Assembly: GCA_028712175.1 (NCBI GenBank)
Contig: JAQTQQ010000003.1
Location: 7,093 to 71,092, forward strand
Direction of reading: 5' to 3'
DNA: 64,000 nt
Source: Candidatus Omnitrophota bacterium
Lineage (GTDB): Bacteria; Omnitrophota; Gorgyraeia; Gygaellales; Profunditerraquicolaceae
Within the stretch, counting starts at the first letter, position 1. The number at the start of each line of letters is the position of its first letter. The translations under genes and the position numbers were made by a program. The notes below the pieces were generated by a model that saw only the letters and a program-made list of their open reading frames with translations, made no database searches and was not told where the DNA came from. Below, in pieces: positions 1,215-3,236 of this stretch.

Positions 1215-2240
1215 ATGCCAGAATTAAGGAAAGATCCAGTTATAGGTAGGTGGGTAATTATAGCCACCGAACGCGCCCGCCGGCCTGATCAGTTTGTCGG
1301 AAAACTTAAAGATCAGGAAGATGCGGTAGCTTGCCCATTTTGCGAAGGAAGGGAAGCAGACACGCCTCCTGAAATTTATGCGATACGGCCGAATAATTCT
1401 CTGCCGAATGGCCCGGGTTGGGATTTACGTGTTGTTCCCAGCATTTCGCCTTTTTTAAGGGTGGAAGGGGATCTTGACCGCCGCGGAAACGGTATTTATG
1501 ATGTAATGAGCGGTTTGGGCGCTCACGAGGTAATAGTCGAGACCAGCCAGCATATCGCCAATATGGCGGATTTAAGCGAAGAACAAATTACCAAAGTCCT
1601 TAATTGTTATTCCGATAGAATAGTTGATTTGGAAAGAGATACGCGGCTTAAATATGTTTTGGTATTTAAAAATTACGGCCAGGGTTCAGGTAGTACAGGT
1701 ATTAAACACGCACGTTCGCAATTAATTGCTACCCCGGTTAACCCTAAGCGCGTAAAAGAAGAATTAGCCGGGGCCCGGCTTTATTATGAATATCATGAGC
1801 GCTGCGTGTTCTGTGATTTGATTCAGCAGGAATTGGCGCAAAAAGAGCGGGTAATTCTGGATTTTGATGGTTTTGTTGCGGTTAGCCCTTTTGCCGCGCG
1901 TTTTCCTTTTGAGACCTGGATTCTGCCGAAACAACATTGCTGCGATTATACCTGCATGGATGCGGAATCCAGAAGAAACCTTGCCCGCGTACTTAAAGCA
2001 GTGCTTTTAAAATTAAAAATAGGGTTAAATGATCCGGATTACAACTATGTGATTCATACAGCTCCTTTTCGCAGGCAAAAAGTAGGCTATTGGAAAACTA
2101 TTGACCATGATTATCATTGGCATATTGAGATTATGCCGCGTTTGACTAAAGTGGCGGGATTTGAATGGGGGACCGGGTTTTATATCTGCCCGCTTCCTCC
2201 GGAGGATACTGCCAAGTTCCTAAGAGAGGTTAAAATTTAA
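1215..2240 (+). CDS. GalT-like HIT-family nucleotidyltransferase (galactose-1-P uridylyltransferase / ADP-glucose phosphorylase family), paralog 1 with altered active-site motif (H-A-R instead of H-P-H)
   Basis: 341 aa with the GalT two-half-barrel signature. N-terminal Zn motif CPFCEG. The segment GIKHARSQLIATP aligns to the HPHxQ catalytic motif of paralog 2, but the nucleophile His is replaced by Arg. Confidence 0.7.
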   Translation: MPELRKDPVIGRWVIIATERARRPDQFVGKLKDQEDAVACPFCEGREADTPPEIYAIRPNNSLPNGPGWDLRVVPSISPFLRVEGDLDRRGNGIYDVMSGLGAHEVIVETSQHIANMADLSEEQITKVLNCYSDRIVDLERDTRLKYVLVFKNYGQGSGSTGIKHARSQLIATPVNPKRVKEELAGARLYYEYHERCVFCDLIQQELAQKERVILDFDGFVAVSPFAARFPFETWILPKQHCCDYTCMDAESRRNLARVLKAVLLKLKIGLNDPDYNYVIHTAPFRRQKVGYWKTIDHDYHWHIEIMPRLTKVAGFEWGTGFYICPLPPEDTAKFLREVKI

Positions 2241-3236
2241 ATGGGTGAATTGCGAAGGGATCCGGTTGTCGGCCGGTGGGTAATTGTTGATACTGAACAC
2301 CCCAGGAAACCGGCAGATTTTGAATATGAACAGTATATCCCGCAGGGAGGGTTATGCCCGTTTTGTTATGGCAATGAGTTTATGACTCCTCCTGAGATCA
2401 GTTGTTTTCGCGACCCCGGTACCGGTAAAAATACTCCGGGATGGCAGGTACGCGTGGTTGCCAACAAATTTCCCGCTTTGCAGATTGAGGGGGATCTTGA
2501 CCGGCGCGGAAACGGTATTTATGATATGTCTAATGGCGTAGGGGCGCATGAGGTTTTAATTGAAAGCCCGTATCATAATAAGGATATTCCCGAGCTCTTA
2601 CCGCAGGAAATCGAAGGGTATATAAAGATGTGTTGCCTGCGCTCCGGGGATTTAAAAAGAGACGACCGTTTTAAATATATAATGATATTTCGTAATTATG
2701 GCTCGGCTGCCGGTGCTTCTTTGGAGCATCCTCATACTCAGCTGGTTGCTTTGCCAATGGTCCCGAAGAACGCTTTAGAGCAGATTCATGGGGCGCGAGA
2801 TTATTACAATTATCGCGAGCGCTGTATATTTTGCGATATGATCCGCCAGGAGATACAGGATAAAGAAAGGATAATCTTAGAGAATACATATTTTCTTTCC
2901 TTTTGCCCTTTTGTTTCGCGGTTTCCTTTTGAGATCAGGATTATGCCTAAGCAGCATAGCGGATATTTTTGCCACATGTCAGAAGCGGAAATTCAGGCGC
3001 TTGCGCAAATTCTAAAAGATACGCTGACAAAATTAAAAAAAGTATTTGATAATTTATCATATAATTATATAATTCATTCTGCACCCGTTAACGGGGAGGC
3101 GGATATCGAGTATTATCATTGGCATATTGAGATTATGCCGAAGCTGACACAAGTTGCAGGTTTTGAGTGGGGGACCGGTTTTTACCTTGATCCAACCTCT
3201 CCTGAATTAGCCGCGCAATATCTAAAATCCGTATAA
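2241..3236 (+). CDS. galT: GalT-like HIT-family nucleotidyltransferase (UDP-glucose--hexose-1-phosphate uridylyltransferase-like), paralog 2 with canonical HPH motif
   Basis: 331 aa, collinear with paralog 1 (starts [16 protein letters not shown] vs MPELRKDPVIGRWVII). Zn motif CPFCYGNE and the canonical catalytic motif [12 protein letters not shown] are both present. The start codon is adjacent to the paralog-1 stop. Confidence 0.75.

Follow-up and report, generated by a model that had tools for sequence, protein, structure and literature searches.

The 64,000-nucleotide (nt) stretch of a Candidatus Omnitrophota bacterium analyzed here (GenBank assembly GCA_028712175.1, contig JAQTQQ010000003.1, positions 7,093 to 71,092; referred to as the window) encodes two adjacent paralogous proteins, A and B, of the family comprising galactose-1-phosphate uridylyltransferase (GalT) and adenosine diphosphate (ADP)-glucose phosphorylase. 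Comparison with their relatives indicates that A and B probably form an obligate heterodimer with a single active site, in which A would be non-catalytic and would complement the site of B in trans. That A could be a pseudoenzyme and a partner in a heteromer had been proposed in a sequence-only reading of the window. The proposal is supported by the conservation of the altered motif in A (histidine-x-arginine, H-x-R), its co-occurrence with an intact histidine-x-histidine (H-x-H) copy, complementary losses in the two proteins, the selection acting on them, and natural gene fusions. The two genes and their motifs are located as follows (positions in the window; lengths in amino acids, aa; open reading frame, ORF; AlphaFold2, AF2):

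1215..2240, + strand: gene A, GalT-like/ADP-glucose-phosphorylase-like paralog without the nucleophile histidine, 341 aa (ORF, translation, Pfam, PDB match, AF2 model)
1269..1286, + strand: N-terminal arm of A, E19-R20-A-R-R23-P24; R20 and R23 correspond to R28 and R31 of E. coli GalT and to R48 and R51 of the human enzyme
1332..1343, + strand: zinc-site cysteines of A, C40-P-F-C43, invariant in all groups
1440..1448, + strand: S76-I77-S78 of A, decayed counterpart of the N-K-F/Y motif that binds the nucleotide in cis (N77-D78-F79 in E. coli)
1704..1721, + strand: K-H165-A-R167-S-Q169 of A, zinc-ligand histidine kept, nucleophile histidine replaced by arginine (translation, alignment to 1z84)
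2145..2183, + strand: loop T311 to 323 of A, putative hexose-1-phosphate-binding trans loop (manual motif alignment to E. coli K311-Q323 and human K334-Q346)
2241..3236, + strand: gene B, paralog with the full set of cis active-site residues, 331 aa (ORF, translation, profile scores)
2298..2309, + strand: H20-P-R-K23 of B, degenerate arm, trans arginine pair lost (column comparison)
2463..2471, + strand: N75-K76-F77 of B, cis nucleotide-binding motif intact (column comparison)
2724..2741, + strand: E-H163-P-H165-T-Q167 of B, nucleophile H165 (all 44 B copies have H-x-H)

The ORFs at 1215–2240 and 2241–3236 agree with the earlier description of two collinear proteins of 341 and 331 aa. Both genes are in one reading frame, with the TAA stop codon of A alone between them and a gap of 0 nt, and the full-length proteins share 47% of their residues (E = 3e-115). 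A third GalT-like copy was not found in the 64-kb window. The contrast between EHPHTQ downstream and KHARSQ upstream, including the codons cac gca cgt, was likewise recovered: the motif of A is encoded by aaa cac gca cgt tcg caa (1704–1721), the arginine codon cgt occupying positions 1713–1715. In the HMMER alignment, R167 of A falls on the nucleophile H186 of 1z84 (H184-S-H186), the position at which chain 2h39 has glycine, and the sole gap near this motif in the alignments to At5g18200, the protein of these structures, lies four positions upstream and stems from the insertion of a single residue. The assignment of an arginine to the nucleophile position, made in the sequence-only reading, therefore stands, since the alignment to At5g18200 places no other histidine of A there. 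A search for an alternative conserved histidine specific to A gave none; the sole candidate, H194, is 69% conserved and adjoins the second CxxC. The zinc site is kept in both proteins (C40, C43, H104, and H165 in A; C39, C42, H103, and H163 in B) and is invariant in all groups, in line with the N-terminal Cys-x-x-Cys noted before in both copies.

With regard to family membership, both proteins score above the gathering thresholds of the Pfam families PF01087 and PF02744 (GalT N- and C-terminal domains). The best PDB match of both was 1z84 (At5g18200; E = 5e-68 for A and 2.5e-67 for B; approximately 37–40% identity), and the matches to E. coli and human GalT were far weaker (1e-12 to 1e-27; 21–23% identity). 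Two GalT equivalog models of NCBIfam were also applied. For TIGR00209, with a curated cut-off of 102.1, A scored below (102.0) and B above (131.3); for NF008724, with a cut-off of 448, both were below (119.1 and 140.5, respectively). The AF2 model of A reached a predicted local distance difference test (pLDDT) value of 94.9 and a predicted template-modeling (TM) score of 0.93, based on a diverse alignment of 121 sequences; a shallow alignment of 29 sequences gave a pLDDT of only 54 and was discarded. The model has TM scores of 0.91–0.94 to the At5g18200 structures and of about 0.8 to GalTs, and the fold of A, as modeled, is intact. Hence, the label "GalT-like" used in the earlier reading is appropriate for family and fold, but true GalT is more distant from both copies, in E-values and TM scores, than ADP-glucose phosphorylase is, and the pair should be called ADP-glucose-phosphorylase-like. 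Among the features of the family, B possesses H-x-H-x-Q and N-K-F and lacks the arm arginine pair; A possesses the fold, the zinc site, and the arm arginine pair and lacks H-x-H-x-Q and N-K-F. Judged by these motifs, A is a structural and predictedly non-catalytic member of the GalT/ADP-glucose phosphorylase family.

To describe the losses at the level of single positions, 48 A, 44 B, and 27 single-copy sequences were compared by alignment column (A numbering). Position 167 is arginine in 43 and histidine in 5 of the 48 A sequences, and histidine in all B (44/44) and all single-copy sequences (27/27). At positions 76–78, A has serine (48/48), followed by I/V and A/S; B has N (44), K (42), and F (41 of 44); and the single-copy enzymes have N (23), K (25), and F/Y (25 of 27). 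The changes from K to I/V and from F to A/S are confined to the A clade. The opposite distribution was obtained for the arm: Arg20 is present in 46 of 48 A, in none of 44 B, and in 25 of 27 single-copy sequences, and Arg23 in 44 of 48, 5 of 44, and 20 of 27, respectively. Residues found in B at position 20 are H (18), N (8), K (7), Q (3), and others. The replacement of Asn76 by serine was also considered as a sign of inactivation and was rejected, as apparently active single-copy enzymes of Nitrospirota carry serine as well.

For human GALT, the active site has been described as including "Arg48 from the opposite chain", and its glucose-1-phosphate site as being composed of Lys334-Gln346 of one chain and Gln188 and Asn173 of the other (PMC5081055). 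Furthermore, intersubunit contacts ARG48A-PHE99B and ARG51A-ASP98B have been reported, glucose-1-phosphate being bound by Arg48 and Arg51 (PMC8513022). Because human GALT contacts Arg48 and Arg51 with the N-D-F motif of the partner chain, the decayed N-K-F motif of A and the decayed arginine pair of B correspond to contact partners within the same site. In turn, a site composed of the histidine and N-K-F of B together with the arginines and loop of A would be complete. In the four pairs with a histidine in A, this copy already carries S-I/V-S and B is already devoid of the arginines.

The following mechanism is suggested by these observations. In the GalT fold, both chains contribute to each active site: one provides the H-x-H-x-Q nucleophile and the nucleotide-binding motif in cis, and the other the two arm arginines and the C-terminal hexose-1-phosphate-binding loop in trans. 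After duplication in Omnitrophota, B would have retained all cis elements and dropped the trans arginines; A would have dropped the cis elements (His to Arg, N-K-F to S-I-S) and retained the trans arginines and the loop. The site with B in cis and A in trans would then be complete and the one with A in cis and B in trans dead on both chains, and no complete site would be available in an A:A or B:B homodimer. His165 of B would attack the alpha-phosphate of a nucleoside diphosphate (NDP)-glucose for nucleotidyl transfer, and the leaving glucose-1-phosphate, and subsequently the incoming phosphate acceptor, would be held by R20, R23, and the C-terminal loop of A. As judged from homology and the genes nearby, the reaction at the live site would most likely be ADP-glucose + inorganic phosphate <-> ADP + glucose-1-phosphate, within glycogen-linked metabolism.

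The H-x-R state was found to be widely conserved. All of the 120 closest orthologues of A (73–90% identical, from metagenome-assembled genomes of Omnitrophota) carry H-x-R (115) or H-x-K (5). The arginine residue itself appears to be under selection, because all six arginine codons (CGT, CGC, CGG, CGA, AGG, and AGA) encode it across species. For a census of the family, one genome per species of the GTDB was scanned with an alignment of seven sequences as the query, resulting in 80 loci, one genome giving two of them; every GalT-like ORF per locus was located and its motif read, and the motif states of the family were taken from the columns of a MAFFT alignment. In total, 42 out of the 80 loci contained tandem pairs of an upstream H-x-R and a downstream H-x-H copy, and 4 loci, all of them from Omnitrophota, contained two H-x-H copies. 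Single copies with room for a neighbor numbered 26 and were all H-x-H (Nitrospirota, Zixibacteria, Ignavibacteria, and others). The remainder consisted of five single H-x-H copies at a contig end and three H-x-R copies truncated by a contig end. Where a partner could have been seen, no H-x-R copy without one was found. The concern that the HAR motif of the window might be a singleton is removed by the 120 orthologues and the 42 species-level pairs.

In 33 of 44 pairs, the end of A and the start of B either overlap or are separated by no more than 4 nt. Together with the fusions and the complementary retention of cis and trans elements, such tight junctions lend indirect support to a physical association of the two chains. 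The order fmt-A-B-gap-pgk-tpi-secG is conserved, with the gap cluster being present in 41 of 46 pair loci; the same gene order was seen in L001/L009, L082, L084, and L085. Upstream of the syntenic block in L001 (positions 1–1395; Omnitrophica RBG_13_41_10), a gene for a 799-aa epimerase/dehydratase was observed, which has a match to the Pfam family Intein_splicing between two Epimerase/GDP_Man_Dehyd halves and would be an intein-containing sugar-nucleotide enzyme.

In a neighbor-joining tree, the A copies form one clade beside the single-copy enzymes and the B copies a separate clade, a few A copies with histidine being nested within H-x-R lineages. Two unlinked copies occur in Zixibacteria SM23_73_3. 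One of them (L081, 7992–8999) is canonical and adjoins glgA. The other (L065, 5602–6627) is located between lptD and yceG and is divergent, with K20/H23, N-I-S, a one-residue insertion, and H-A-H. The L065 copy is sister to the Omnitrophota A clade and may represent an unlinked version of the A/B partnership or an intermediate (L067, from Ignavibacteria, is listed alongside it).

With regard to selection, 861 genome pairs were compared, and in 92% of them A was the better conserved copy, with mean identities of 64.5% for A and 59.7% for B. Purifying selection thus continues on A despite its lost catalytic residue, and is stronger there than on B. The ratio of nonsynonymous to synonymous substitution rates (dN/dS) was 0.048 for A and 0.053 for B, both being rough values from seven unsaturated pairs with dS near 1.4. 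Mean pairwise identities of the arm residues 17–26 were 75.5% in A and 39.1% in B. The cis catalytic half (31–175) was the sole region in which B was more conserved (62.2% vs. 60.3%). For the C-terminal half (176–341), 67.0% and 57.2% were obtained for A and B, and for the trans loop (311–323), which is near-invariant among A copies, 88.4% and 83.2%.

More degenerate members of the A lineage (P0126, P0128, P0135, and P0173) keep both R20 and R23. Their motifs include H-S-R-S-H in P0135, H-C-S-S-R in P0126, and R-V-S in P0173, the latter having also lost the CxxC; P0135 and P0173 were found in the order fmt-A-B. A natural A-B fusion, P0121 (599 aa), was the top match in a representative library of 1.84 billion proteins, and its gene is located just upstream of gap-pgk-tpi-secG. 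Further A-B fusions, P0271 and P0272, originate from other assemblies, and the three are 52–56% identical to one another. In all three, module 1 has retained the arm V-E-R-A-K-R-P-N-D-F and the loop A-G-F-E-W-G-T-G (corresponding to loop 311–323 of A) as invariant elements, and has lost CxxC, N-K-F, G-A-H-E, and H-x-H-x-Q. Module 2 begins at C-P-F-C in all three, the arm being deleted, and contains all cis motifs; its own trans loop is relaxing.

Several other relatives were recorded alongside this series. P0153 (871 aa) comprises two complete GalT-like modules, both with H-x-H and N-K-Y, and a 140-aa N-terminal extension; its arm positions are R/Q in module 1 and R/R in module 2, and it looks like a fused dimer with neither site decayed. 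P0127 (L087, 4001–5026; H-P-V) is a stand-alone protein whose gene adjoins a type III pantothenate kinase and a Usp gene, and the stand-alone P0130 (L086, 1626–2672; H-S-Y) is encoded beside a baeRF (eRF1-like) gene and DUF123. Both are outside the A lineage and have also lost the arm arginines, and they are a different phenomenon from A.

Several points weigh against an obligate heterodimer with one site. The cis and trans roles were carried over by alignment from human and E. coli GalT, with only about 21–23% identity. Within the presumably dead site, N153 (43/43) and Q169 (42/43) of A and the trans loop of B stay invariant, and the strict selection of Arg167 would be left unexplained by a site that is merely dead. 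Arg20 is absent from approximately 20 of 122 H-x-H representatives of the family. In the arginine-less H-x-H proteins P0132, P0155, P0207, and P0220, the arm motif E-R-x-x-R-P is truly absent, and the predicted A partner was not found on their contigs (1.6 to 21 kb). The arginine pair is thus not needed throughout the superfamily, and therefore B alone might retain some activity. Furthermore, the A-type protein P0126 (L083, 1704–2708), which keeps the arginines, is encoded after fmt with no B within 5 kb on its 9.9-kb contig, and a tblastn search of the uncalled 850-nt stretch downstream of it gave no remnant of B. The arm-less H-x-H subfamilies reside in L089/L090 (P0132), L091 (P0207), L092 (P0220), and L093/L094 (P0155); their contexts are non-glycogen (TatD/radical SAM, UPF0102, and Lon/LigT), and they may use a different second substrate.

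The invariance within the second site could also be interpreted as a sign of regulation by A. The site with A in cis and B in trans would have acquired a new use, binding a hexose phosphate or phosphate without catalysis; Arg167 would act as the phosphate clamp in place of the lost trans arginines, and the pocket would exert allosteric control over the live site. We consider this possible, if on the whole rather unlikely; it would refine the heterodimer model and not contradict it. Consistent with a regulatory role are the maintenance of Arg167 through all six codons, the invariance of the sugar-binding elements of the second site (N153 and Q169 of A; the G-F-E-W-G loop and E317 of B, the latter in 44/44) while its nucleotide-binding elements were lost, the stronger constraint on A as a whole, and the conserved place beside gap-pgk-tpi. 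The positive charge in this site was also relocated, trans arginines having been lost and a cis arginine gained. However, this conservation may be structural or related to the interface, as Q188 of human GALT also bonds Asn97 and Trp191 of its own chain (PMC5081055), and position 167 is histidine in five A copies. Moreover, the degenerate A-types and the fusions have lost N153, Q169, and even the zinc site, with the B loop relaxing; because its elements were lost there, the second site is dispensable in at least some lineages. Its most specific form, a dead second site rebuilt as an allosteric sensor in which Arg167, at the place of the nucleotidyl-histidine, clamps the phosphate of a hexose phosphate (or inorganic phosphate) and N153/Q169 of A together with the loop of B hold the sugar, is a tentative suggestion from the conserved residues that we regard as doubtful. 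If true, the sensor would make turnover at the one live site depend on how much of an intermediate of glycolysis or glycogen metabolism is present, and one half of a symmetric two-site enzyme would have been naturally converted into a regulatory site whose genes share an operon with gap-pgk-tpi.

That A and B are separate homodimeric enzymes, each with its own substrate and linked only by a common operon, appears improbable. A homodimer of B could be viable given the stand-alone members without the arginine pair, and the four pairs with H-x-H in A could each represent two active enzymes. However, these H-x-H copies of A already carry S-I/V-S and their B partners are already devoid of the arginines. 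Independence would also leave unexplained why A retained the trans arginines and the loop despite the loss of its cis elements, and why the arm of B is relaxed (39% identity) and even deleted in the fusions.

We give still less credence to A being an independent homodimeric enzyme, in which Arg167 would stabilize a direct attack by single displacement (such as phosphorolysis), no covalent histidine intermediate being formed. The strict selection of arginine at the nucleophile position and the intact fold, zinc sites, and Q169 would fit such an enzyme. However, ADP-glucose phosphorylase itself uses a histidine nucleophile (H-S-H in 1z84; 2h39 is a His-to-Gly variant), the N-K-F motif for nucleotide binding is gone from A as well, and no A without B was found where testable. 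The A lineage keeps losing zinc ligands and the motif, retaining only trans-acting elements, and the fusions indicate that A and B act together. For the same reasons, the shift to phosphorolysis as in ADP-glucose phosphorylase, offered as an alternative in the sequence-only reading, was not upheld: that enzyme keeps the histidine, both copies resemble it equally, and A is without the nucleotide-binding motif. A decaying pseudogene, or an arginine produced by a sequencing or assembly artefact, was ruled out: His to Arg requires a single transition (CAY to CGY), but the state occurs in 120 of 120 orthologues and 42 species-level genomes, A is more conserved than B with a dN/dS of about 0.05, and its ORF is intact and its fold confidently predicted.

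The genomic surroundings of the pair in the window were determined as follows:

238–1191: fmt (ORF list)
3272..6307, + strand: gap-pgk-tpi, directly downstream of B (neighborhood conserved in other loci)
3272–4324, + strand: gap
5540–6307, + strand: tpi
8576..9799, + strand: glgC (ADP-glucose pyrophosphorylase), about 5.3 kb 3' of the pair

These coordinates agree with the earlier statement that the pair adjoins gap-pgk-tpi with glgC nearby. Genes within approximately 10 kb of the pair are fmt, gap, pgk, tpi, secG, a major facilitator superfamily (MFS) transporter, MarC, and glgC. The genes galK, galE, and galM, which would indicate a Leloir context, were absent among the neighbors within this distance, the part of the window screened for gal genes. 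The pgk ORF as called (4305–5543) has a TTG start and a 20-nt overlap with the end of gap; its true start is likely the ATG at about 4362 (M-A-K-L-T-L-K-D-L), as deduced from orthologues of 394–395 aa in L001 and L084. Rfam matches in the 64-kb window were limited to two tRNA genes (39194–39266 and 39435–39505).

Regarding the pathway, the hint at a sugar-nucleotide or glycogen role given in the sequence-only reading gained support from the relatives of the pair. Among 34 loci of single-copy relatives, glgA/GT5 is a neighbor in 14, GH57 in 5, and GlgC-like nucleotidyltransferases in 8 and 5. Typical orders are NTP-transferase, galT-like, glgA, GH57, or glgC, glgA, galT-like, GH57. The glgC product of the window is 56% identical to GlgC of the operon glgC-glgA-galT-like-GH57 in L063, and glgC is also present in the related pair loci L002, L006, and L009; neither glgA nor GH57 was found in the window. 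Furthermore, GalT-like modules are fused at the C-terminus to a GT5 synthase in P0147 (814 aa) and to GH57 in P0162 (875 aa) and P0194 (858 aa), all with H-x-H, which suggests that NDP-glucose chemistry is linked by direct channeling with the synthesis or branching of glucans. In the locus of one A-B fusion gene (L084; GCA_003558915.1, PWOP01000182.1), a phosphoglucomutase/phosphomannomutase gene (1–1285) was observed about 3.7 kb upstream of the fusion, representing another link to glucose-1-phosphate metabolism. To judge by the operons and fused genes of other phyla, the family seems to belong to glycogen/ADP-glucose metabolism. At5g18200 was reportedly described as an ADP-glucose phosphorylase by McCoy et al. 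in 2006. PMC6329318, which cites that work, likewise names At5g18200 as an ADP-glucose phosphorylase. With this enzyme as the characterized homologue, chemistry linked to ADP-glucose is the likeliest assumption for the pair.

If A and B indeed form an obligate one-site heterodimer, complementary losses after duplication would have locked the pair into this state. GalT-type enzymes are standard homodimers with shared sites, and A/B appears as a natural interallelic-complementation experiment. A series can be drawn from the homodimer to the pair with both histidines, the H-x-R state, the decayed A and, in other lineages, the fusion with its useless parts shed. It offers a natural system for studying the entrenchment of heteromers, with constructive neutral evolution set against the gain of regulation. 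For annotation, hundreds of Omnitrophota proteins that bear the name "galactose-1-phosphate uridylyltransferase" or "DUF4931" probably represent subunits without catalytic activity, and the bacterial family as a whole seemingly serves glycogen/ADP-glucose and not galactose metabolism. In the literature searched, neither a heteromeric GalT-like or ADP-glucose-phosphorylase-like enzyme nor one with a pseudoenzyme subunit was described, and there was nothing relevant on bacterial ADP-glucose phosphorylase, galT-like genes in GH57 clusters, or glycogen in Omnitrophica. No earlier record was found of a heteromeric member of the GalT/histidine triad (HIT) branch with a pseudoenzyme subunit, and the pair would be the first.

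Comparable arrangements are known from other folds. In GlgC/GlgD of Firmicutes and in the small and large subunits of plant ADP-glucose pyrophosphorylase, a non-catalytic paralog encoded beside the active one is kept as an obligatory partner or modulator. Unlike A/B, these proteins consist of a nucleotidyltransferase domain and a left-handed beta-helix, their sites are not known to be built from both chains, and no complementary cis/trans loss is known. In trypanosomatids, a dead paralog, the prozyme, heterodimerizes with the live AdoMetDC and is needed for its activity; however, this system has another fold, is eukaryotic and not encoded in a tandem operon, and relies on allosteric activation instead of the donation of active-site residues. 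Within the superfamily, At5g18200 (1Z84, 1ZWJ, and 2H39) shares with A and B the two-half GalT fold and the CxxC/His zinc sites, and carries both the arm arginine pair (R41/R44, as in A) and H-x-H-x-Q (as in B). Its connection with ADP-glucose agrees with the glycogen operons in which bacterial relatives are found. However, At5g18200 is a homodimer with two equivalent intersubunit sites, whereas the chains of the A/B pair differ and each is without half of the elements. Class I GalT of E. coli and human belongs to the same superfamily, with a similar fold (TM about 0.8) and sites shared between the chains, but is a homodimer and not a differentiated heterodimer, is only 21–23% identical, and differs from A/B, which is without Leloir context in 10 kb. 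The Q188R variant of human GALT is partly dominant-negative in heterodimers, the chains being strongly interdependent (PMC5081055). Heteromers of an enzyme and a pseudoenzyme paralog are therefore already known as such; what is new in the present case is the GalT/HIT branch, the clear cis/trans signature, and the fusion as the end-point.

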